Below are positions 26,472-58,960 of a stretch of DNA of 64,000 nt, one piece after another. The first letter of the stretch is position 1; each line of letters starts with the position of its first letter. Origin of the DNA: Candidatus Nomurabacteria bacterium RIFCSPLOWO2_01_FULL_39_18 (GTDB lineage: Bacteria; Patescibacteriota; Minisyncoccia; Phycocordibacterales; UBA9973); assembly GCA_001787005.1 (NCBI GenBank), contig MFUV01000010.1, positions 73,955 through 137,954 on the forward strand. Direction: 5' to 3'. Below the pieces are notes generated by a model. It had not been told where the DNA came from. It made no database searches and saw nothing but the letters and a program-made list of their open reading frames with translations. A program made the position numbers and the translations under genes.

Positions 26472-29390
26472 TTACATTACTATGTTGATCAATCTATTTT
26501 TTATATAAATAAATTTTTTAATTTCTTTGCCCGCTGTATGCCTTGCGATAACCTCGTTGGCAAGAGATTTTTTTTTTACACTTTCTTCATTTTCGTCTGC
26601 CTGTACCATAATCTCCGCCCTGACTTTGCCATTTATCTGCACAACAATTTTGACCTCATCATCTTTAATTTTTTCCTTATCATATTCCGGCCATGAAGAG
26701 AGATGAACGGATTTCTTTTCTCCAAGCATACTCCAAAGCTCTTCAGTGATATGCGGCGCAAAAGGAGAAAGAATCTGTAGAAACTTCTTGAGGTCTTCTA
26801 GGCTGACGCCGCTCTTTTCCATTTCATTTAGAAGTATCATAAGTGAGGACACTGCAGTATTAAAGCGCATACTATCAATGTCTTCACTGACTTTCTTGAT
26901 GGTTTTATGAAGAAGTTTTGCAAGCGAAGCCGGAGAAGATTTCTGAGTCGCGTAAGTCCCACCCGGTACTCCGGGAAGGGTAAAGCGCGAAGAAATCTTC
27001 TCCGGCGAAGCTATTTTATGTCCAATCTTCCAAACTCTTTCTATAAACCTCCTCGGCCCCATTAGGCTGTCTGTGCTCCATGACACTGATTGATCAAATG
27101 GCCCCATAAACATTTCATATAAGCGGAGTGTATCCGCGCCGTATGTAGAAACTATACTATCTGGATTTATAATATTTCCAAACCTTTTCGACATTTTCCT
27201 GCCATCGGAAGCAATAATCAGCCCTACGTGTTGAAGTTTCTTAAAAGGCTCTTTGTTCACCACCACGCCTATGTCGTAAAGGAATTTGTGCCAGAACCTC
27301 GCATATATCAAGTGTCTGGTCGCATGTTCTGCTCCGCCAACATATAAATCCACCTCATTCCAATATTTTTCTATATTTTTATCCACCAGAGCTTTGTTAT
27401 TGTCTGGGTCCATGTAGCGAAGATAGTACCAAGAAGAACCGGCCCATTGGGGCATAGTATTGCTCTCTCTTCTTAAAACTTTTTGGCCAACTTTCACATT
27501 TATCCAGTTTGGCACGTTCGCTAAAGGCGATTCTGCGGTTCCAGTCGGCTTATAAGACTTAACTTTTGGCAATTTCACTGGCAAATCTTTTTCTTTAACT
27601 GGGATAACTTTAGTGCCGTCGCGCAAAACCGGTATCGGTTCGCCCCAATAACGTTGGCGAGAAAATACCCAGTCGTGAAGTTTGTAAGTTACTTTTCTAT
27701 AACCAAATCCTTTTTTCACAATGTAATCAATGATATCTTCGCGTACTTCCCCCCATTCCCTGCCCTTGAATTCTACTGGTTCGGTAAGAATGCCATTTTT
27801 GATGATTGGTTGATTAATTCCGAGATACCTCTTCCAAATCACTTTCATATCTTCTCTGCTTACAAAATCCAAAACTTCTTTTTCGGAAACCCAATGCATA
27901 TCGTAAAAATCTTTTTGTTTCTGTTCTATCTCTCCTTGTTCATTGTTTTGGAGTTTAAAGTAAAGAGGAGTAAAATGCGCAAAACGGTTTTGCTTTTTTA
28001 TATCCTGCCAAAATTTGGAATGAACTACCCCACCTAATTGTTTTACAAATTTTATATTTTTATATCCCGTTTCTTCAGTTATCTCTCGGATTCCGGTTTC
28101 AACTGGATCTTCCCCATCTTCCACCCCTCCTACTACAAAACCCCGCCAATCTGTATTTTTTACGCTATGACAAAGAAATTTATTCTCTGACCAGTGCTTG
28201 ATAATGCAAACAACTGCATTTCTTTCGATAAAAGGTTCGCTCTCTCTCGCCTTATCTAAGCCTTCACTTCTCACCACCAAGGGCTCGACAACTTCTCGAA
28301 GAGGAATGTTATATTTTTTCGCGAAGGCAAAATCTCGCTCGTCATGCACACTTGAATTAACAATACCCGTCCCATAGTCCGCAATAACAAAAGTTGCAAT
28401 CCAAACAGGCAAATCGCCTGTGCCGAAAGGATTGTCCACATATCGCCCAGTAAAAATTCCTTCAATTTCTTTTTCTGTTTCAAACCCTTTTTTTATTTTT
28501 CTTTGTTTGAATTTCTCAACAAAATCTAAAACGGGTTCCTCATATTTTGTTCTCTTTATTAACTTTTTTACCAACGGATGCTCCGGCGCAATAACACAAA
28601 AGGTCTGTGCCATGAAAGTTTGCGGAATAGAATCATAGGCTTCAATTTTAATTCCTAAGTCCTTTACCTTCTGTTTGTACATGATGCCCTCGCTTCGTCC
28701 GATCCAATTTCTTTGACTTTCCTTTATGGATTCCGGCCAGTCTAGGGCGTCTAAATCCGCCAAGAGTCTGTCAGCATAGTCAGTAATCTTCAAAACCCAT
28801 TGGCGAATAGGCTTTTTTTCAACGACGGCTCCGCACCTTTCGCACTTTCCGTCTTCCACATCTTCATTGGCCAGGATAGTCATATCCCTAGGACACCAAT
28901 TCACCGGTTCGTTAGACTCATAAGCAAATCCACGTTCTAGCAATTTTAAAAATATCCACTGAGTCCATTTGTAAAATTTCGGATCTGAAGTATTCACCTC
29001 TCGAGACCAATCATAATCAAATCCGATAATTTCTAATTGTTTTTTAAATCGAGCAATATTTTTTGCCACCGACACGACGGGATTGGTTTTTGTTTTAATG
29101 GCATAATTTTCAGTAGGCAATCCGAAAGAATCAAACCCCATGGGGTGCAGAACATTAAACCCCTGCATTCTTTTTTTCCTAGAGACTACGTCTGTGGCAA
29201 TGTAGCCCTTCGGATGGCCAACATGGATGCCTTCCCCCGAGACATAGGGAAACATATCTAAAATATAGAATTTCCCTTGCCCCGCCGTAGCTTTATGCGA
29301 AGGTGGGTTTTTTGTTTGGTAGATTTTTTTCTTAGCCCATTCTTTCTGCCATTTTTTCTCAATCTTCTTGTGGTCGTATTCCTTCTTCAT
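26472..29390 (-). CDS. leuS: Leucyl-tRNA synthetase with an inserted NUDIX hydrolase domain and a palindromic insertion
   Basis: HIGH region FPYVSGEGIHVGHPKGY. KMSKS motif KMSKRFGN. Editing-domain landmarks GTGIVNSSVHDERDFAFAKKYNIP. The 972-aa length exceeds typical bacterial LeuS because of a Nudix insert of about 155 aa. Confidence 0.9.
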   Translation of the reverse strand: MKKEYDHKKIEKKWQKEWAKKKIYQTKNPPSHKATAGQGKFYILDMFPYVSGEGIHVGHPKGYIATDVVSRKKRMQGFNVLHPMGFDSFGLPTENYAIKTKTNPVVSVAKNIARFKKQLEIIGFDYDWSREVNTSDPKFYKWTQWIFLKLLERGFAYESNEPVNWCPRDMTILANEDVEDGKCERCGAVVEKKPIRQWVLKITDYADRLLADLDALDWPESIKESQRNWIGRSEGIMYKQKVKDLGIKIEAYDSIPQTFMAQTFCVIAPEHPLVKKLIKRTKYEEPVLDFVEKFKQRKIKKGFETEKEIEGIFTGRYVDNPFGTGDLPVWIATFVIADYGTGIVNSSVHDERDFAFAKKYNIPLREVVEPLVVRSEGLDKARESEPFIERNAVVCIIKHWSENKFLCHSVKNTDWRGFVVGGVEDGEDPVETGIREITEETGYKNIKFVKQLGGVVHSKFWQDIKKQNRFAHFTPLYFKLQNNEQGEIEQKQKDFYDMHWVSEKEVLDFVSREDMKVIWKRYLGINQPIIKNGILTEPVEFKGREWGEVREDIIDYIVKKGFGYRKVTYKLHDWVFSRQRYWGEPIPVLRDGTKVIPVKEKDLPVKLPKVKSYKPTGTAESPLANVPNWINVKVGQKVLRRESNTMPQWAGSSWYYLRYMDPDNNKALVDKNIEKYWNEVDLYVGGAEHATRHLIYARFWHKFLYDIGVVVNKEPFKKLQHVGLIIASDGRKMSKRFGNIINPDSIVSTYGADTLRLYEMFMGPFDQSVSWSTDSLMGPRRFIERVWKIGHKIASPEKISSRFTLPGVPGGTYATQKSSPASLAKLLHKTIKKVSEDIDSMRFNTAVSSLMILLNEMEKSGVSLEDLKKFLQILSPFAPHITEELWSMLGEKKSVHLSSWPEYDKEKIKDDEVKIVVQINGKVRAEIMVQADENEESVKKKSLANEVIARHTAGKEIKKFIYIKNRLINIVM
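26930..27005. repeat. Palindromic element in-frame in leuS: perfect 15-bp arms ccggagaagatttct / agaaatcttctccgg with inner hairpin cccgg-tact-ccggg
   Basis: Arms at 26930..26944 and 26991..27005 are exact reverse complements. Encodes the ...LPGVPGGTYATQKSSPASLAK... segment. Confidence 0.75.
27810..28286 (-). other. NUDIX hydrolase domain embedded in LeuS (about aa 369-527)
   Basis: Complete Nudix box GGVEDGEDPVETGIREITEETGY (Gx5Ex7REUxEExGU). It is inserted between the end of the CP1 editing domain (KKYNIPLREVV) and the conserved linker that precedes KLHDWVFSRQRYWGEPIP. Confidence 0.85.
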
Positions 29391-51020: not shown

Positions 51021-52403
51021 CTAGTGGATGCGGTCTATGTAGTTATTAGGATTATCGTTGTTTTCAGATAACGGTTTTTCCATGTCTCCCACTTTTTCTC
51101 CGTTTTGGGGAATGTCGTCTGTTTGCGGAAACATTTTTTCTTCTTCGGCTACCTCTTCCTTCGCTAGCATTTGTCTCACCCGGCGAATAGAACGAATGAT
51201 GTGGTGCCCTACAAGATAGTGCAGAATCAGAATAATCAAGCCCAGCAGGATAATTCCAATCAATATATAAACCAAGTAATCCTGAATAAACTTCGTGATA
51301 GAGGAAGGCACTTTTACGTCAATGGATTCGTCGCGTGCATTACCGGCGCGGTCGAGAGCTCGCACGACAACTTCCAACCTCCCGCCGGCGGAAAGCGGAA
51401 CTTGAAATGGACTTTCAGCTTGGACGAACGCCGGAGACTCTGTCGGAGGCTGATCTTTGTCTATGATGCCGACTTCATAATGATCAATGCCAGAGAGATT
51501 GTCAGTGGTAAAAAAGGAAACCAGCACCCTCTCGGTTTCAACAACGGCCGCAACTAGATAATTTACTTCCGGTTTGAATTCTGCCGGTGGCGCCGTGTCT
51601 ATTCGTAAGAGAAAATTGCCAGTGGTGCTCCACACATTATTTCTACTTCCCTTGATGTGAAAATACCAAAGCCCGTCAGTAAGATTTTCGAAGCTTTTTG
51701 TTGTTTCATCTCCATCGGCTATATTGTCCGGTATGGTATTGGGCTTGTTGTCTAGTTCGAAACTGAAACCGGCAACGCCGGGATCTCTTATCCAGGAGAG
51801 AGTTGGGCTATTGTTATTATACCAGTCTGATTGGATGGGATGAGTCTCTGAGAAAATCTGGACGCCTCCGGGCGCTTTGGTTAAAATAGTATAATTCGCC
51901 CTGCCCAAACCTACGATCGTCTCCGTTCCCAGCCCGTCGTTTAATAAAATTTTTGAATTGGAAGCGGTGCTGACAACTGCCTGGCCGGCAGATTTAGCTT
52001 TGAAAGTAATTGTACCCACAAGCCCGGCCTCAGTGATGATACCACCAGGAATCACGCCGACATAGCTCGCCGTACCGCGCGTATTGTCATATCGAGGCGG
52101 CTCAACCCAGACGCCGATGATAGAAGTGCCGCCAGTCTGATTGATGATTGAAAGCCTGTCTTTGTCGAAATTAATTCTTACCTCAATCCCATTAATACTT
52201 TTTCCTCTCGTATTAACAAGGATTGAAACCTGAAAAACAGAATCTTCCTCGAAACTTCCGAAGCGCGGGGAAAATGAAATATCAGTATGAGAAAGAAGTT
52301 TAGAAGCATCAACATTGACCGTCTCCGCATAGAGAAAAATGGGAGCAGAAAAAGATATGAATATAAACGGTAAAATCAGAAGTTTTTTAATTGAAAAATT
52401 CAT
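51021..52403 (-). CDS. Cohesin-like domain surface protein, C-terminal TM anchor (paralog 1)
   Basis: Signal peptide. An N-terminal domain shared with 52405..53760 (VSFFTTDNLSGIDHYEVGIIDK). A C-terminal TM (ILIGIILLGLIILILHYLV) plus an acidic cytoplasmic tail. Confidence 0.6.
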   Translation of the reverse strand: MNFSIKKLLILPFIFISFSAPIFLYAETVNVDASKLLSHTDISFSPRFGSFEEDSVFQVSILVNTRGKSINGIEVRINFDKDRLSIINQTGGTSIIGVWVEPPRYDNTRGTASYVGVIPGGIITEAGLVGTITFKAKSAGQAVVSTASNSKILLNDGLGTETIVGLGRANYTILTKAPGGVQIFSETHPIQSDWYNNNSPTLSWIRDPGVAGFSFELDNKPNTIPDNIADGDETTKSFENLTDGLWYFHIKGSRNNVWSTTGNFLLRIDTAPPAEFKPEVNYLVAAVVETERVLVSFFTTDNLSGIDHYEVGIIDKDQPPTESPAFVQAESPFQVPLSAGGRLEVVVRALDRAGNARDESIDVKVPSSITKFIQDYLVYILIGIILLGLIILILHYLVGHHIIRSIRRVRQMLAKEEVAEEEKMFPQTDDIPQNGEKVGDMEKPLSENNDNPNNYIDRIH

Positions 52404-52404
52404 T

Positions 52405-53760
52405 TTATGGTTGATTCTCTATTTGTTTTTCTATTTCCGCTTTGACATTTTCCAGACCTTTTTCTAAAGCTGCTATTTTTTCTCTTTCGAGAATATTTTC
52501 TTCATTCGTTTTTTCTTTTACTTGGAGATAATCTGCAATTTCATGTTCGATGATATCAAGAGTATTTTTGCGTCTGAAAGGATTAATTCTTCTATTCTTA
52601 ACCAAGAAATACCCTAAATAAACCGCTATAAGAACGATTATCGCAGTCAATGCGATGTTATTTTCGATTAATTCCCAAATTATAAAGGGGGGATCAGTGT
52701 TAATGAAACTCTCTTGTATATTACCGGCTTTATCAATAGCGCGTACTATCACTTTTAAAGTACTATTTTCTAAAAGGGGAACTTGAAAAGGGCTACTGTT
52801 TTCAATAAATACTGGCGCTTCTGAAATTGGTTGATTTTTATCTATGCTACCTATCTCATAATGATCCACGCCAGAAAGATTGTCCACGGTAAAAAAAGAG
52901 ACTAGGGTTCTTCCGGCCAAAAGAACGCTGGCAGGAAAATGATTAACCTTTAGTTGGAATGGAGCAGGTGGTATAGTATCAATTCGCAAGAGAAAATGAC
53001 CTGTTGCTCCCCACGCACCATTTTTGATAGCTTTTATATGAAAATACCACAAACCGTCAGTAAGATTTTCAAAAGATTTAGTGTTTTCGTTGGAATCTGT
53101 AATATTATCCGGTATTGTAAACGGCTTATTGTCTAAAATAAAACTAAAACCACTCGCGCCATTAACTTCTTGCCAGGACAATATCGGACTGTTGTTATTG
53201 TACCATTTTCCTTCTGATGGATGAGTTTCGGAAAAAACTGACACGCCTTCAGAAATCTTTTTTAAAATACTATATTCTGCCCTACCTAAATCAAGTACCG
53301 CGCTAGTTTCAAGTCCGTCGTTTAAAAGTATTTCTGAAGTAAAACTTACGCTGATTGTGGCTTGACCGTAACTAATGGCATTAAAGGTAATGGTTGCTAC
53401 CAATCCTGACTCCGTAACAATACCATCAGCAATCGTGCCGACATAGCTTACTGTGCCTAAGGTATTATCATAACTTGGTGATTCAGACCATAGTCCGACA
53501 ATCGATTTACCGCCAGAAGGTTGCACAATTGCGAGTTTGTCTTTATCAAAATTAATTTTTATTTTTATTGCTTCGACACTATTATTGTTAGTATTTATGA
53601 GAATAGGAACGTCAAAAGTAGTCCCCTCTACAAAACTTCCCGAACGGGGCGATAAAAAAACTTCCACGCGATTTTCATTATTTTGAGCTTGAGCAAATGG
53701 AGAAGTAAAAAAAACCAAAAATATAATTCCTAAAAAAATATTTTTAATTTGTGTTTTCAT
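52405..53760 (-). CDS. Cohesin-like domain surface protein, C-terminal TM anchor (paralog 2)
   Basis: Collinear with 51021..52403. FLSPRSGSFVEGTTFDVPILINT...IKIKINFDKDKLAIVQPSGG is cohesin-like. Confidence 0.6.
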   Translation of the reverse strand: MKTQIKNIFLGIIFLVFFTSPFAQAQNNENRVEVFLSPRSGSFVEGTTFDVPILINTNNNSVEAIKIKINFDKDKLAIVQPSGGKSIVGLWSESPSYDNTLGTVSYVGTIADGIVTESGLVATITFNAISYGQATISVSFTSEILLNDGLETSAVLDLGRAEYSILKKISEGVSVFSETHPSEGKWYNNNSPILSWQEVNGASGFSFILDNKPFTIPDNITDSNENTKSFENLTDGLWYFHIKAIKNGAWGATGHFLLRIDTIPPAPFQLKVNHFPASVLLAGRTLVSFFTVDNLSGVDHYEIGSIDKNQPISEAPVFIENSSPFQVPLLENSTLKVIVRAIDKAGNIQESFINTDPPFIIWELIENNIALTAIIVLIAVYLGYFLVKNRRINPFRRKNTLDIIEHEIADYLQVKEKTNEENILEREKIAALEKGLENVKAEIEKQIENQP

Positions 53761-54902
53761 TAAAATCCAATATTTTTAATTTTCTTATCGATTATCTTTT
53801 CTGCTTCAGAAATATCTTTTTTGATACCCGTCATCCTTTTGTGCTCAGCAAGGGGTAATTTCTGATTATCATAATCAATAATATCTTCGCGCAGAATATC
53901 AAAGGACTTATGCACAACATTCTCAGCATCGTGGATTTCATGTTTTATATTTTTATCTAAATCTTGACCCAGGTGGAAGTGAATGCGTAGCAGTAAGTAA
54001 AGTATTAAAAGTATCAGAAGCAAGATGAGCAGAGATATCTCCCAGCCGACATCGTCTAATATGTTGCCAATCTTTACAATAATCATATTTGATGTCTCGC
54101 TGTTCGTCTTGTCCGCCTTGACCAACACTGCCGTTACATTATAGGTGCCACGCCTGAGTGACGAGGGAACCAGAAGGGTAAACTCTCCCTCCAGGTCAGC
54201 CTCACCGAGAATGAAAATTTTTGTTCCGTCTGTTGCGACAAAGGTCAGAAGCGCTTGCGCCCCCGGATACTCTGACGTACCGACTATAGCCTGTGCGCCA
54301 TACTTAGCGCCAAGCGCAATTTCTGGCGCCCGGAGAGTAGGTTCTGGCTGTATTTCTTCCGGAATTACCTCGGGCTTGGGTTCTGGCGTTTTTGGTTTAA
54401 CTGTCGCCTGTTGAACAGAAAAAGTCGCGCCGATTAAATTGCCTGTGATGTCGGTGCCTTCTCCGTCATTGGCGAGAATTTGCCCTGATTGAAAAGAAAA
54501 ATTACCAGTCCCAGGATTAATTGCGCGTAAATTTATTGTAACGACAGCGCCAGAGGAACCGGGGAAACCACCCAATGCCACACCTTCAAACCTGATTGTG
54601 TTCGCAGTTTTTGAAACAGTCGGTTGAGTAACCCAAAAATCAAGAATGGAGCCTGCCTTTGACACAGATTCTACGGAAAAAACCGCGGATGGAAACGATA
54701 ATAATCCAGAAACGGCATTGAAAGGGGTATTAGAAGTGGCTATGACTTTAACCACCACGCGATTCCCTACTTCAAAATTCCCAGATGAGGGACTAATGGA
54801 TAACGCGGCGGCATTGGCCACAAGCGGTCCTAAAACGAATAGCAAAAAAGGTACTACCGTTTTAAAAACTTTGACAATATTTTCCCTAGAAAAAAGACGC
54901 AT
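53760..54902 (-). CDS. Cohesin-like domain surface protein with Pro-rich linker and C-terminal TM
   Basis: LSISPSSGNFEVGNRVVVKVIATSNTPFNAVSGLLSFPSAVF is cohesin-like. A PKTPEPKPEVIPEE linker and a TM helix near the C-terminus follow. Confidence 0.55.
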   Translation of the reverse strand: MRLFSRENIVKVFKTVVPFLLFVLGPLVANAAALSISPSSGNFEVGNRVVVKVIATSNTPFNAVSGLLSFPSAVFSVESVSKAGSILDFWVTQPTVSKTANTIRFEGVALGGFPGSSGAVVTINLRAINPGTGNFSFQSGQILANDGEGTDITGNLIGATFSVQQATVKPKTPEPKPEVIPEEIQPEPTLRAPEIALGAKYGAQAIVGTSEYPGAQALLTFVATDGTKIFILGEADLEGEFTLLVPSSLRRGTYNVTAVLVKADKTNSETSNMIIVKIGNILDDVGWEISLLILLLILLILYLLLRIHFHLGQDLDKNIKHEIHDAENVVHKSFDILREDIIDYDNQKLPLAEHKRMTGIKKDISEAEKIIDKKIKNIGF

Positions 54903-55726
54903 ATAACTAGAAGTATACCAAGAATTAAGTTGACTGGGAAGCGTAATAATGAATTTTGCGCTTTGATTTTTACTGTTCTTTCATTGCCAGACTTATCAAT
55001 TGCTCTGATATATAGATTTTTACTTAAAGATTGGTCTTTCAAGAGATATGGACTCTCGGCCACAACATATTCCCCCCAGAAACTCCAGAAGTTTCTTTCG
55101 CGTATTTCGTAGTGGTCAATCCCTCCCCCCTTATCCACTGTGCTAAAGGCGATAAAATACTTGCCGTCAAACAAAGAAGGATCGCTCCCCACAATAGGCT
55201 TGAAGTCTTCTGGAGGATCGATGTCCCTTATTGTTAAATCAAACTGTAAACCATCAGAACTTTGGGAAATATAGAGAGAGAGAGGAATTTCTTTGGTGGA
55301 AATTTTGGTACCCAAGCCATCGTTTTGTAAAACTTGAATATCACCAAAGCGGATTAGGCTACGCCCTGATCTCTTGGAATGAAAGACTAATTCAAACAAA
55401 AAAACTTTTTCCCCAGAAAGTCCTCCGGTAATTATTCCAGAAAAGGCAACTTGTCCATTCTCGACATCATGTGGTTTTTCTATCCAAAAATTGATAGACG
55501 AATTACCATCTCTAATTTCTTTTAATTCTAGAAGCTCGCTAGGGAATAAGACTGTTCCTCCAATAGCATTGACTGCCAGATCTTCGGTGTTCATCAATAC
55601 TCGCACTAAAAAATCTTCATTGGGAGCAAAGCTACCCTTGTCAACACCAAAAAATATTTCAGCCGCAAAAGAAACAGTCGGTGTGAAAATTAATAAAAGT
55701 AAAATTGGAATTAATATTTTTTTCAT
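54854..55726 (-). CDS. Cohesin-like domain surface protein with C-terminal TM
   Basis: GVDKGSFAPNEDFLVRVLMNTEDLAVNAIGGTVLFPSELLEL is cohesin-like. C-terminal TM LILGILLVICVFFLG. Confidence 0.55.
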   Translation of the reverse strand: MKKILIPILLLLIFTPTVSFAAEIFFGVDKGSFAPNEDFLVRVLMNTEDLAVNAIGGTVLFPSELLELKEIRDGNSSINFWIEKPHDVENGQVAFSGIITGGLSGEKVFLFELVFHSKRSGRSLIRFGDIQVLQNDGLGTKISTKEIPLSLYISQSSDGLQFDLTIRDIDPPEDFKPIVGSDPSLFDGKYFIAFSTVDKGGGIDHYEIRERNFWSFWGEYVVAESPYLLKDQSLSKNLYIRAIDKSGNERTVKIKAQNSLLRFPVNLILGILLVICVFFLGKILSKFLKR

Positions 55727-55784
55727 AATTTTTCCCCAGATAGAGCTTTAGACTCTATCTAGAGTCTAAAGCTCTATCTGGCTA

Positions 55785-56843
55785 CTACCCCGTCCAATAA
55801 AAGGCCATGATACTAAAATCAACCAAATCAACTTTGCCATCCCCGTTTAAATGCTTGATTTCTCTTGGTATAAATTCGGCGCTAAGCGGACGCTTGTACC
55901 AGAATGCGGCGATGGAAAAATCTACCAAGTTACAGCGACCATCTTCATTCAAATCGCATTTTGCGGATTTTGCCGTCGGATCTACGAGCACATTTTCTGT
56001 ACCAACAAGAAAACCGACGGTATTGCTGAAAGAGCTGATTTCGTTTCCTTTCTGCGCTTTGGATTTGGTAGAGTGAGATCCTAACTCAAGAAGTGAAGTG
56101 TCAAAATTGTGCAAATAGATGCCGTTCGTGTCAGATAGTGTATTTTCGAAAAATTCTTGCGCAGAATTAACGCTGATAATGACACTGGCAGTTTGAGCGC
56201 TTTGTCCAAAAATGGCTATATTGTCTCCGCGCTTGACCACGCTCTTGTCAACCGCAATGGTCGGAGCAATAAATATACCGCTTATATTCGTGATTATGTT
56301 GGCAGTTATAAAAATCTGGAAGGTGAACGGACTTGAGCGCAAACCGTTCTTGTCTTCGCCATAGACAGAAAATGTATAATTACCGGAAGCGAGATTGGTC
56401 AAAGACGCAGAGAAGTTGCTGTCCGGACCCGCTATGGTTGAGAGCACCAATTGTCCATCCTTGAGAATACTTACTTTAGACAATGGATATGCTCTTCCAG
56501 AAAAATTAACTCCAGTATTTGTGGATCCGCCACTTCCGCTACTTCCACCACCCCCGCCGCTACCGGGTGAAGATTCCTCTTCTACGAATGGAAAATAAAG
56601 AAATCCGAAACGGCCGAGAAAAGTGCTTGACGAAGAAGCGCCGATAACCGACTCATCTAGAGACTGGAACACTCGAAAACTCCCAGAGGTTCCATATCCC
56701 CCGCCAACACCTACCACTGGATCACGGATGATAAAGCTGGGACTGGTTAAATCAGAAGCAAGAGCAGTAGATACCCATAGTGTAAAAGTTAGAAGTAAAA
56801 AAAACAAACAGGAAAAAAGATTAAAGTATATTTTCTTTTTCAT
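55785..56843 (-). CDS. Secreted protein with C-terminal dockerin (two Ca-binding repeats)
   Basis: DLNEDGRCNLVDFSI and LNGDGKVDLVDFSIMA match the dockerin D-x-N/D-x-D-G-x-V-x-x-x-D duplicated repeat. Signal peptide and Gly/Ser linker present. Confidence 0.65.
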   Translation of the reverse strand: MKKKIYFNLFSCLFFLLLTFTLWVSTALASDLTSPSFIIRDPVVGVGGGYGTSGSFRVFQSLDESVIGASSSSTFLGRFGFLYFPFVEEESSPGSGGGGGSSGSGGSTNTGVNFSGRAYPLSKVSILKDGQLVLSTIAGPDSNFSASLTNLASGNYTFSVYGEDKNGLRSSPFTFQIFITANIITNISGIFIAPTIAVDKSVVKRGDNIAIFGQSAQTASVIISVNSAQEFFENTLSDTNGIYLHNFDTSLLELGSHSTKSKAQKGNEISSFSNTVGFLVGTENVLVDPTAKSAKCDLNEDGRCNLVDFSIAAFWYKRPLSAEFIPREIKHLNGDGKVDLVDFSIMAFYWTG

Positions 56844-56890: not shown

Positions 56891-57280
56891 TTACGGAGTA
56901 GCTGGTGCGGAGGAAGTTTTCTGACTTTCTCCAATATTCAGAGGCGCTACTTCGATAATTTTGTTCATTGATACACTGTAAAGAAAAGCCTTCTTGGCAG
57001 TGGTATAAATAAGTACCTTATCTCCCTTTGCCGCCCCCGCAAAAAAGGCTTGGCTTTTTAACGCCTCGGGATCAGCTACAGTGGCCACTGTCGGCACCTC
57101 ACCTTCAGGCAGAATCACTAAACGACCCACTTTCGCCACTAGATCGGCTGTTTCTTTTTGAGTTACTGCTTGAGGATTTTGTTTAATTAAACTCCACTGA
57201 TAATAAAAGTATGCAGCGAAAATCACCGCAACGACTGCAATCAACAAAACTACCCTATCTATCATTTTTTGTCTATCCAT
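56891..57280 (-). CDS. Small N-terminally anchored protein (paralog family, member 1)
   Basis: 129 aa. N-terminal TM. Collinear with 57787..58188: (D/A)xxKxxxxLxxLxxLPxxVPTxATVxDP...QAFFA.A.G.KVL. Confidence 0.5.
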   Translation of the reverse strand: MDRQKMIDRVVLLIAVVAVIFAAYFYYQWSLIKQNPQAVTQKETADLVAKVGRLVILPEGEVPTVATVADPEALKSQAFFAGAAKGDKVLIYTTAKKAFLYSVSMNKIIEVAPLNIGESQKTSSAPATP

Positions 57281-57372: not shown

Positions 57373-57768
57373 CTACGGGGACTTATATTTCTTTATCGCC
57401 TCCACGACCTTGCCATTATCTTTCATATTTTCCCAAAATAAAATTTTATCTTTCTCGATGTACATAGCGTCGGTTGGCCCATGGAGCTCTGATCCTAGCT
57501 TGATTAGCTGAAGTTTTTGGTTGGGATCACTTGACGAAATTTTGCTTCCAGCTTGTTGAAGCAAGTCGGTAGCTTGTAAATAATAAACATCAGTTAATTT
57601 AATAAAGCGGCCGCTAGCAGAAATCTTGCCAAAATACACTTGGCCGTTATCAAGGAAAACTGCCTGGTATCCCTCGGCATTAATCTTGAACCAGATATTT
57701 TGCCCATAAAAATAGCAAACAACGGCTCCAACTAATAAAACTGAAAAAAATATTTTCCTTATATCCAT
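57373..57768 (-). CDS. Small N-terminally anchored protein (related architecture)
   Basis: 131 aa. N-terminal TM. Weak similarity to the neighbours. Confidence 0.45.
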   Translation of the reverse strand: MDIRKIFFSVLLVGAVVCYFYGQNIWFKINAEGYQAVFLDNGQVYFGKISASGRFIKLTDVYYLQATDLLQQAGSKISSSDPNQKLQLIKLGSELHGPTDAMYIEKDKILFWENMKDNGKVVEAIKKYKSP

Positions 57769-57786: not shown

Positions 57787-58188
57787 TTATTCATTTATTT
57801 TCTCTATGTTGGGAGTTATTGCGCTGCCCCCTTCCTCTTCTGTCAGGTTAACGGGGCCGACTTCAATGACTTTATGTGTAAATGGGTCGTAGAGAATAGC
57901 TTTCTTGGCAATCGAAAAAACTAAAACTTTGTAGCCAACCTTTGCATTAGCAAAAAAAGCTTGATCAGAAAGTTTAGACGGATCTGTAACTGTCGCGATA
58001 GTTGGCACTTCATCCGGCAGTAAAATTAATTTGCTCAAGTCTCTAATCAGTTTTTTATTTTCATCTTCTGTCGCAATTCCCGGATTGTTTTTAAGAGTGT
58101 TCCACTGCCAGTAGAAATATCCCCCTGCAAGGAGACTGCCCACAAACAATATTATAAAAGACAATATAAGTATTTTTATTTTTCTCAT
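57787..58188 (-). CDS. Small N-terminally anchored protein (paralog family, member 2)
   Basis: 133 aa. Clear paralog of 56891..57280. Confidence 0.5.
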   Translation of the reverse strand: MRKIKILILSFIILFVGSLLAGGYFYWQWNTLKNNPGIATEDENKKLIRDLSKLILLPDEVPTIATVTDPSKLSDQAFFANAKVGYKVLVFSIAKKAILYDPFTHKVIEVGPVNLTEEEGGSAITPNIEKINE

Positions 58189-58230
58189 GGTTCCATAATT
58201 ATAACAAATTCTAATTTGGAAGCCAATCCT

Positions 58231-58303: not shown

Positions 58304-58960
58304 ATGCAACGAAAAACAAAATTTGTGATCGGAGAGTTTTATCATATTTACAATCGTGGAGTAGAAAAAAGAATTATTTTCCCAAATATATCTGATTATA
58401 AAAGATTTCTAGCTCTTTTATATCTTGCAAACAGTAATGAAATAATACAATTCCGAAATGATTTTTCTAGAACTTTCCTTGAGAAAATTTTCGAGAAAGA
58501 TCGAGGCGAGCCGTTAGTTGCCATTGGAGCATATTGCTTAATGCCAAACCATTTTCATTTATTACTCACTCCCCTGGTGGAGGGAGGGATATCAAAATTC
58601 ATGTTAAAGCTTCAGACTGGGTATTCTATGTATTTCAATAAAAAGAATGATCGGGTTGGGGGGCTTTTCCAGGGAGTTTTTAAATCACAACATATAGATA
58701 AAAATGAATATTTAATGTATATTTATGCGTATATTCATTTAAATCCAACGAAGTTAAAAAATTCAGAATGGAAAACACAACCAAAAAGTTTTTTAAATAA
58801 ACTAAAAAAATTTATTGCTGAATATCCATATTCTAGCTTGCAAGAATATTTATCTGGAAATTATAGAATACTAAACCCTAAGCCATTCCCGATGGAGAAA
58901 AAAGATCTTATTGACCACGATTCTATGATAGATGATTTTAGCGAGGTATTACCAAGGTGA
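58304..58960 (+). CDS. REP-associated tyrosine transposase-like (IS200/IS605 Y1 HuH family), RAYT-2
   Basis: GEFYHIYNRG. HuH motif AYCLMPNHFHLLLTP. Downstream catalytic Tyr region GGLFQGVFKSQHI. Collinear with RAYT-1 and about 30% identical by eye. Confidence 0.8.
   Translation: MQRKTKFVIGEFYHIYNRGVEKRIIFPNISDYKRFLALLYLANSNEIIQFRNDFSRTFLEKIFEKDRGEPLVAIGAYCLMPNHFHLLLTPLVEGGISKFMLKLQTGYSMYFNKKNDRVGGLFQGVFKSQHIDKNEYLMYIYAYIHLNPTKLKNSEWKTQPKSFLNKLKKFIAEYPYSSLQEYLSGNYRILNPKPFPMEKKDLIDHDSMIDDFSEVLPR

Follow-up and report, generated by a model that had tools for sequence, protein, structure and literature searches.

What might cohesin and dockerin modules do in a bacterium of the Parcubacteria group when no enzyme, carbohydrate-binding module (CBM) or lectin domain is detected at the locus that encodes them? 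The question is raised by a gene cluster in a 64-kb stretch of DNA from Candidatus Nomurabacteria bacterium RIFCSPLOWO2_01_FULL_39_18 (Parcubacteria group, Patescibacteria), hereafter the window, to which coordinates refer. According to the open reading frame (ORF) list, positions 51021-56843 are filled exactly by five co-directional minus-strand ORFs, just as a preliminary description of this DNA had delimited the cluster, and intergenic spacing along the order D352-C290-C380-C451-C460 ranges from +58 to -49 nt (Table 1). D352 is a secreted protein ending in a dockerin, and each of the four C proteins begins with a cohesin; C451 shows 100% identity to a protein recorded for this organism. We consider these very likely to be true cohesin and dockerin modules; judging from the sequences, they probably form a non-cellulosomal docking system of the Parcubacteria cell envelope in which the dockerin of D binds the cohesins of the C proteins.

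Four membrane-anchored cohesin proteins

C290, C380, C451 and C460 share one plan: a signal sequence, an N-terminal cohesin, immunoglobulin-like (Ig) or fibronectin type III (FN3) spacers, one C-terminal transmembrane (TM) helix and a cytoplasmic tail. Signal sequences of all five proteins of the cluster were judged from hydropathy and by eye, and in each an AxA-like site comes after a hydrophobic stretch at the N-terminus. Since basic residues follow the single strong C-terminal TM segment in each C protein, a type I topology is implied for all four. The TM segment and basic tail of C290 were also considered as a sortase signal, a candidate rejected because no LPXTG-like motif lies ahead of them. 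The tails had been described as short and acidic, which does not hold: that of C290 is a basic decapeptide (net charge +4), and those of C380, C451 and C460 extend over 62-71 amino acids (aa), are predicted to be helical and have mixed charge with a slight net negative balance. Partly conserved motifs are found in the C380 tail.

The N-terminal domains of the C proteins are paralogous (BLASTP E-values of 1e-9 to 1e-15, 25-30% identity), with C451 and C460 as tandem paralogues (53% identity over 375 aa). The Pfam Cohesin model (PF00963) matches C451 with 34.0 bits, above its gathering cutoff of 24.1, and C460 just under it, with 22.0 bits. Among orthologues the same model is matched at E<0.01 by 53 of 58 proteins of the C451/C460 type, 10 of 64 of the C290 type and 5 of 33 of the C380 type. 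Both of the latter families are tied to the C451/C460 family by hhalign, at E-values of 1e-41 for C290 and 3e-29 for C380. Queried singly, C451 and D352 retrieved only noise from the PDB, and matches appeared with family profiles: the C451 family profile retrieved 4uyp_A (E-value 0.0016), and the C290 orthologue profile retrieved the Ruminococcus flavefaciens ScaB cohesin 5aoz_A (E-value 0.004).

An AlphaFold2 (AF2) model of C451 has a mean predicted local distance difference test (pLDDT) score of 86.5 and exceeds 90 over aa 30-170, where the chain is modelled as a beta jelly-roll; two more beta-sandwich domains, the TM helix and a long cytoplasmic helix follow. The best PDB match of this model in Foldseek is the cohesin-FN3 region of Clostridium perfringens GH84C (2w1n, E-value 7.8e-12), and more than 20 cellulosomal cohesins match it with template-modelling scores of 0.62-0.79 at a root-mean-square deviation of about 3 Å. 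Top-ranking matches include many type I cohesins (scores of 0.65-0.79) and many cohesins taken from solved cohesin-dockerin complexes. The cohesin fold was modelled for C451 and is assigned to C290, C380 and C460 by homology. Three invariant motifs are common to the three cohesin orthogroups (S-I-x-x-F-W-x-x-x-P, F-S-G-x-x-P-G-G and L-x-N-D-G-x-G-T), and they fall on predicted strands 5, 6 and 8. The dockerin-binding face of solved type I complexes includes these strands.

A secreted protein with a duplicated dockerin

The extreme C-terminus of D352 shows the tandem duplicated architecture of a dockerin, whose unit of about 22 residues is defined as an EF-hand-like Ca loop (D or N at positions 1, 3, 5, 9 and 12) and a helix. 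Ca loop 1 is DLNEDGRCNLVD (aa 297-308; ligand positions D297, N299, D301, N305 and D308) and Ca loop 2 is HLNGDGKVDLVD (aa 331-342; ligand positions H331, N333, D335, D339 and D342), followed by the helices NLVDFSIAAFWY and DLVDFSIMAFYW, respectively. In all six frames of the window these two loops are the sole matches to the loop pattern. The AF2 model of D352, with pLDDT >90 over aa 110-350, places dockerin helices at aa 306-314, 324-331 and 340-348. Dockerin_1 (PF00404) scores 21.8 bits on D352, where the gathering cutoff is 22.9, and matches 52 of 59 D orthologues at E<0.01 (best 1e-7); the D family profile, searched against the PDB, retrieves the dockerins 2y3n_B (E-value 1e-4) and 5nrm_B (E-value 4e-3).

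Among 126 unique orthologues, residues D297, N299, D301, N305, D308, N333, D335 and D342 are each kept in at least 113, and all ligand positions are kept in at least 100 except the variable first position of loop 2. The recognition helices, LVDFSIAAFWY and LVDFSIMAFYW, are nearly invariant and almost identical to each other. Around loop 1, many of these sequences also carry one of two alternative, covarying cysteine pairs: C296+C304, the type found in the window, in 22-23 of 126, and C292+C302 in 52-53 of 126, the rest having neither. This alternation suggests interchangeable disulfide staples, as would suit an oxidising extracellular location.

Ahead of the dockerin lie two Ig domains and, beyond a Gly/Ser linker that separates it from them, an N-terminal motif of three S-x-[SN]-F repeats ending in GFLYFP (aa 31-86). 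This motif has pLDDT <50 and is disordered in the monomer model. Among all fetched loci it is confined to D orthologues; one speculative role is an exchange of strands with a further subunit or a partner. An FN3 domain, lacking in D352, is present in 34 of 59 D orthologues.

The domain identities are underlain by Pfam Cohesin and Dockerin matches, family profiles and AF2/Foldseek evidence, and most of the preliminary description stands on these grounds. It had proposed four consecutive signal-peptide proteins with an N-terminal cohesin-like domain and a C-terminal TM anchor, which is borne out by the paralogy, the Pfam Cohesin matches, the PDB profile matches and the C451 model. The next gene was said to encode a secreted protein ending in a duplicated dockerin, and D352 does so, with its two Ca-loop/helix repeats. 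Hidden Markov models (HMMs) had been named as the check: Cohesin scores above its cutoff for C451 and Dockerin_1 just short of its own for D352, yet most D orthologues are matched. What was found, then, is cohesin similarity in the N-terminal domains, not unrelated Ig-like folds, together with dockerin HMM matches in most D orthologues, the two points on which that description had beforehand staked its reading. Given both identities, the cell-surface scaffold that it suggested is a reasonable reading.

A conserved operon across Parcubacteria

A relative of D is present in at least 562 species genomes (one genome per species scanned), and the named carriers are all Patescibacteria: Nomura-, Taylor-, Wolfe-, Campbell-, Zambryski-, Vogel-, Colwell-, Magasanik-, Veblen- and Torokbacteria, and Candidatus Microsyncoccus archaeolyticus. 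A search of a representative library with the D profile returned 2127 proteins at E<=1e-30, which is not a clean family size because FN3-repeat giants dominate the result, many D orthologues carrying FN3.

Synteny was sampled over the 80 best D loci. A C290-type gene directly follows D in 78 of these 80, and where at least 3 kb of downstream sequence was available (70 loci), both a C290-type gene and a long cohesin gene come after D in 69 cases. The long partner comes in two forms, either as separate C380-type and C460-type genes (24 loci) or as a single protein of ~575-600 aa that joins a C380-like cohesin to C460-like spacers. What is conserved at the least is thus D together with a C290-type and one long cohesin. 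C451 and C460 stem from a lineage-specific tandem duplication, also found in close Nomurabacteria relatives, and C460 is the nearer of the two to the single copy of other genomes. Over the 10 kb around the cohesin genes, D is almost always the sole dockerin; because of this and of the near-obligate linkage, the genes would appear to encode a dedicated cohesin-dockerin pair or set.

Across 74 species, mean identity to the window sequence is 64% for Ig1, 61% for Ig2 and 72% for the dockerin of D, compared to 38-54% for the cohesins and about 21-36% for the tails, so that D is the most constrained component. As this constraint on D is uniform across lineages with presumably different partners, it would fit a core envelope function with several fixed protein contacts. 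To judge by sequence conservation, the pattern argues for a core envelope component, of which it is more typical than of a host-specific adhesin.

Some relatives carry further dockerins. In locus L001 (2079-9470, plus strand), three paralogous proteins of 752-877 aa are encoded directly upstream of the operon, each terminated by a Dockerin_1 match (35 bits), and no other Pfam domain is found in them. L001 and L006 are the same genome, sampled twice, from a close relative whose D is 70% identical. These dockerin-ended proteins are candidate cargo for the cohesin anchors, and they are what an anchor-plus-cargo arrangement predicts. In another clade (L062, 3155-5199; L073, 7465-9677; L034, 2162-4368; all on the plus strand), several secreted proteins of ~320-370 aa are encoded just upstream of D, and one type among them gives a weak match to the WxL-interacting-protein peptidoglycan-binding domain (E-value 0.003).

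A proposed docking system and its alternatives

In the docking system that we propose, the proteins of the three cohesin orthogroups (C290, C380 and C460, the last duplicated here as C451 and C460) would be exported by Sec as type I membrane proteins and anchored in the cytoplasmic membrane by their single C-terminal TM helix. Their cohesins would be held at graded heights, by one Ig domain in C290, by a Pro-rich linker and an Ig domain in C380 and by FN3 and Ig domains in C460 and C451. The secreted and probably co-transcribed D352 would then dock on one or two cohesins via its symmetric C-terminal dockerin in a Ca-dependent manner, tethering its two Ig domains at the cell surface with the Gly/Ser linker and the N-terminal beta motif beyond them. 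Where further dockerin-ended proteins are encoded beside the operon, they may dock on other cohesins. A dual binding mode is known from type I dockerins, and the near-identical dockerin helices are compatible with either such a dual mode or the simultaneous binding of two cohesins; for the latter, C290 and a long cohesin, the two universal partners, could be an example of such a pair.

Several observations weigh against this proposal. C290 and C380 themselves have no Pfam Cohesin match, the Dockerin_1 score of D352 is 1.1 bits under the Pfam cutoff, and in Ca loop 2 the first ligand is Asp in only 23 of 126 orthologues. There are three or four cohesins per local dockerin, so that some would need other partners or have none. 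Finally, the Ig domains of D are as conserved as its dockerin, which the model leaves unexplained and which points to additional interactions. The most direct alternative is that the cohesin-like modules do not bind the dockerin of D at all but are beta-sandwich parts of unrelated membrane proteins, used there as spacers or for binding, with D's dockerin binding elsewhere or acting only as a Ca-stabilised fold. The missing Pfam matches of C290 and C380 would agree with this, as would the identities of only 13-23% between the C451 model and characterised cohesins in structural alignments and the lower conservation of the cohesins relative to the dockerin. We still find it improbable, since it would have to account for the linkage in 69 of 70 loci, for D being the sole dockerin nearby and for shared cohesin motifs (S-I-x-x-F-W, F-S-G-x-x-P-G-G and NDGxGT) that coincide with the known dockerin-binding face. 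A cellulosome-like complex for polysaccharide degradation was rejected and has next to no likelihood in our estimate: the mere presence of cohesin and dockerin modules is what recommends it, but each C protein has one cohesin with no multi-cohesin scaffoldin at the locus, no glycoside hydrolase or CBM is found in D, the C proteins or their neighbours, and D352, the only dockerin protein in the window, is devoid of a catalytic domain.

If docking does occur, its purpose could be attachment to a host, with the cohesin anchors displaying D and either the distal N-terminal motif of D or giant proteins binding the host cell. Host-binding adhesins normally diverge fast, and the 61-72% identity of D across very diverse lineages with presumably different hosts is at odds with that behaviour; nor was any lectin or host-binding domain detected in D or the C proteins. 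On the other side stand the giant surface-protein genes, found upstream and in the same orientation in 42 of 55 loci, the presence of the operon (locus L076) in Candidatus Microsyncoccus archaeolyticus PMX.50, a parasite of the Paceibacteria that has been observed attached to methanogen cells (PMC10936435), and a dockerin-domain envelope protein, not a D orthologue, that is reported to be essential in a saccharibacterial epibiont (PMC10633639). Altogether we regard a host-attachment organelle as rather unlikely, somewhat disfavoured as it is by the conservation pattern of the sequences; an indirect contribution to attachment is possible, for example by a complex that organises the variable upstream giant proteins.

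The role that we favour for the docking system is that of a core scaffold of the envelope, which may anchor or organise large surface proteins. A more specific version, which we consider doubtful, would make the operon of D, C290 and long cohesin a core Parcubacteria envelope scaffold in which D sits on graded TM cohesin stalks and D units are perhaps interlinked via the S-x-S-F motif (e.g., by donor-strand-type exchange), forming a surface layer or a platform for giant proteins.

Relation to known systems

The closest counterparts are the anchoring scaffoldins of cellulosomes (OlpA, OlpC and SdbA of Clostridium thermocellum, ScaC of Acetivibrio cellulolyticus, ScaB and ScaE of R. flavefaciens). 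As in those systems, a cohesin is presented on a cell-bound protein, where it would be expected to bind a partner whose C-terminus is a dockerin with two Ca-loop/helix repeats. The OlpC, OlpA, ScaC and ScaB cohesins can be superposed on the C451 model with template-modelling scores of 0.65-0.74, and the profile matches go to ScaC (4uyp) and ScaB (5aoz). Anchoring scaffoldins are attached through S-layer homology (SLH) repeats or a sortase signal, whereas the proteins described here end in a TM helix and a cytoplasmic tail. They also have one cohesin each, without enzymes, CBMs or a primary scaffoldin, and belong to a Patescibacterium with no evident cellulolytic role.

The non-cellulosomal toxin and glycosidase complexes of C. 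perfringens (GH84C, 2w1n; 2vo8; 2jh2) likewise operate outside plant cell-wall degradation and share with C451 and C460 the order of cohesin then FN3. Their modules reside within secreted enzymes, which they link to one another, in contrast to the membrane-anchored, non-enzymatic proteins of a dedicated conserved operon. Cohesin and dockerin modules are also scattered among Bacteria and Archaea without cellulosomes (e.g., Archaeoglobus fulgidus); what differs here is that one dockerin protein is combined with two to four TM cohesin proteins in a fixed operon, conserved in hundreds of Parcubacteria species. By analogy only, Sulfolobus S-layers have a C-terminally TM-anchored beta-sandwich stalk that holds a secreted, Ig-rich partner (SlaB and SlaA), and S-layer Ig domains gave weak matches in Foldseek; there is no sequence relationship to SlaA/SlaB and no lattice evidence here, and the coupling in our case would be of the cohesin-dockerin type.

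A literature search turned up no description of a cohesin-dockerin operon for Patescibacteria or Parcubacteria. Relatives of these proteins are already annotated publicly as 'cohesin domain-containing protein' and 'dockerin type I repeat-containing protein', so the system is not a new category. Its modules and, presumably, its docking chemistry are those of the anchoring scaffoldins and the C. perfringens pairs; its novelty lies in TM anchoring with tails, one cohesin per protein, the absence of enzymes, the fixed operon and the distribution over Parcubacteria. The essential dockerin-domain envelope protein SEML1_0315 of Southlakia, the saccharibacterial epibiont mentioned above (PMC10633639), was rejected as a D orthologue, being a stand-alone protein from a 2784-bp gene (about 927 aa) in a different context, without adjoining cohesin genes.

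Gene neighbourhood

Three small, N-terminally anchored proteins (Ga, Gb and Gc) are encoded upstream of D352, Ga and Gc being paralogues of one family and Gb belonging to a second. The Gb ectodomain is strongly conserved (e.g., YQAVFL-N-QVYFGK...LGxELHGP), and conserved ectodomain motifs are found in the Ga/Gc family too; neither family has relatives in Pfam, NCBIfam or the PDB, searches with family profiles included. Small proteins of either family lie upstream of D in 33 of 69 loci. The best promoter match of the region, a sigma-70-like site with an extended TG, lies immediately upstream of Ga, and no convincing terminator was found in the region scanned between the genes from Ga to C460, so that Ga-Gb-Gc-D-C290-C380-C451-C460 are likely a single transcription unit starting near this promoter-like site.

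Farther upstream, a giant Thr/Ser/Gly-rich protein of 1646 aa is encoded, and the gap between its gene and Ga is occupied by a plus-strand Y1 transposase gene of the IS200-like type. The giant gene has a GC content of 0.48 (vs. about 0.39); its product has no Pfam match and no dockerin, lacks an obvious signal peptide when read from the called GTG, and contains repeats that resemble those of a 5838-aa giant protein at the equivalent position in L001. As same-strand giant ORFs of at least 750 aa lie upstream in 42 of 55 relatives, it is a possible partner or neighbour of the operon. In several relatives, a membrane-anchored protein of the Beta-lactamase2 family (~330 aa) is encoded between the giant gene and the small genes. 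Elsewhere in the window, the leucyl-tRNA synthetase gene (26472-29390, minus strand) contains an inserted NUDIX domain (aa 405-508, E-value 6e-11), an unusual fusion in which the insert separates the editing domain from the second half of the catalytic core.

Table 1. Coordinates of the cohesin-dockerin genes, their domains and neighbouring features in the window.
Feature	Coordinates	Strand	Residues (aa)	Basis or remark
C460, cohesin protein	51021-52403	-	cohesin 38-175; TM 378-398	ORF; 53% identity to C451; C451-type architecture; 62-aa tail
C451, cohesin protein	52405-53760	-	cohesin about 28-170; TM 367-387	ORF; Pfam Cohesin; AF2; Foldseek; profile; FN3-like domain; Ig domain; 64-aa helical charged tail
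C380, cohesin protein	53760-54902	-	cohesin about 32-165; TM 289-309	ORF; hhalign to C451 family; Pro-rich linker; Ig domain; 71-aa charged tail
C290, cohesin protein	54854-55726	-	cohesin about 22-160; TM 260-280	ORF; hhalign to C451 family; orthologue profile; one Ig domain; 10-aa basic tail
D352, dockerin protein, 352 aa	55785-56843	-		ORF; Pfam Big_6 and Dockerin_1; AF2 model; profile-PDB
D352 signal sequence			1-30	
D352 conserved N-terminal S-x-S-F beta motif	56586-56753	-	31-86	low model confidence
D352 Gly/Ser linker			87-109	
D352 Ig1			110-182	
D352 Ig2			183-284	
D352 dockerin module	55788-55961	-	295-352	extreme C-terminus; two Ca loops, helix after each
Gc, small N-terminally anchored protein	56891-57280	-		directly upstream of D352
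Gb, small N-terminally anchored protein	57373-57768	-		upstream of D352
Ga, small N-terminally anchored protein	57787-58188	-		upstream of D352
Sigma-70-like promoter match, TTGGCT-17-TATAAT with extended TG	58198-58226	-		consensus match only
IS200-like Y1 transposase gene	58304-58960	+		Pfam Y1_Tnp, 32.6 bits
Giant Thr/Ser/Gly-rich protein, 1646 aa	58981-63921	-		ORF upstream of operon

Implications for the Parcubacteria cell surface

The envelope of the Candidate Phyla Radiation (CPR) is central to the symbiotic lifestyle of these bacteria, yet almost uncharacterised molecularly. The operon described here is an easily recognised, enzyme-free set of genes in hundreds of Parcubacteria species and a concrete, testable candidate for a core surface complex, whose small and very conserved dockerin-cohesin pairs can be expressed and tested without culturing the organisms. 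It would extend cohesin-dockerin biology to a TM-anchored form with cytoplasmic tails and to a use apart from polysaccharide degradation. A surface layer has been seen on ultrasmall CPR cells and, to our knowledge, has never been assigned molecularly; if the more specific scaffold reading is true, it would assign molecules to that regular surface layer or to an anchoring platform for giant proteins.

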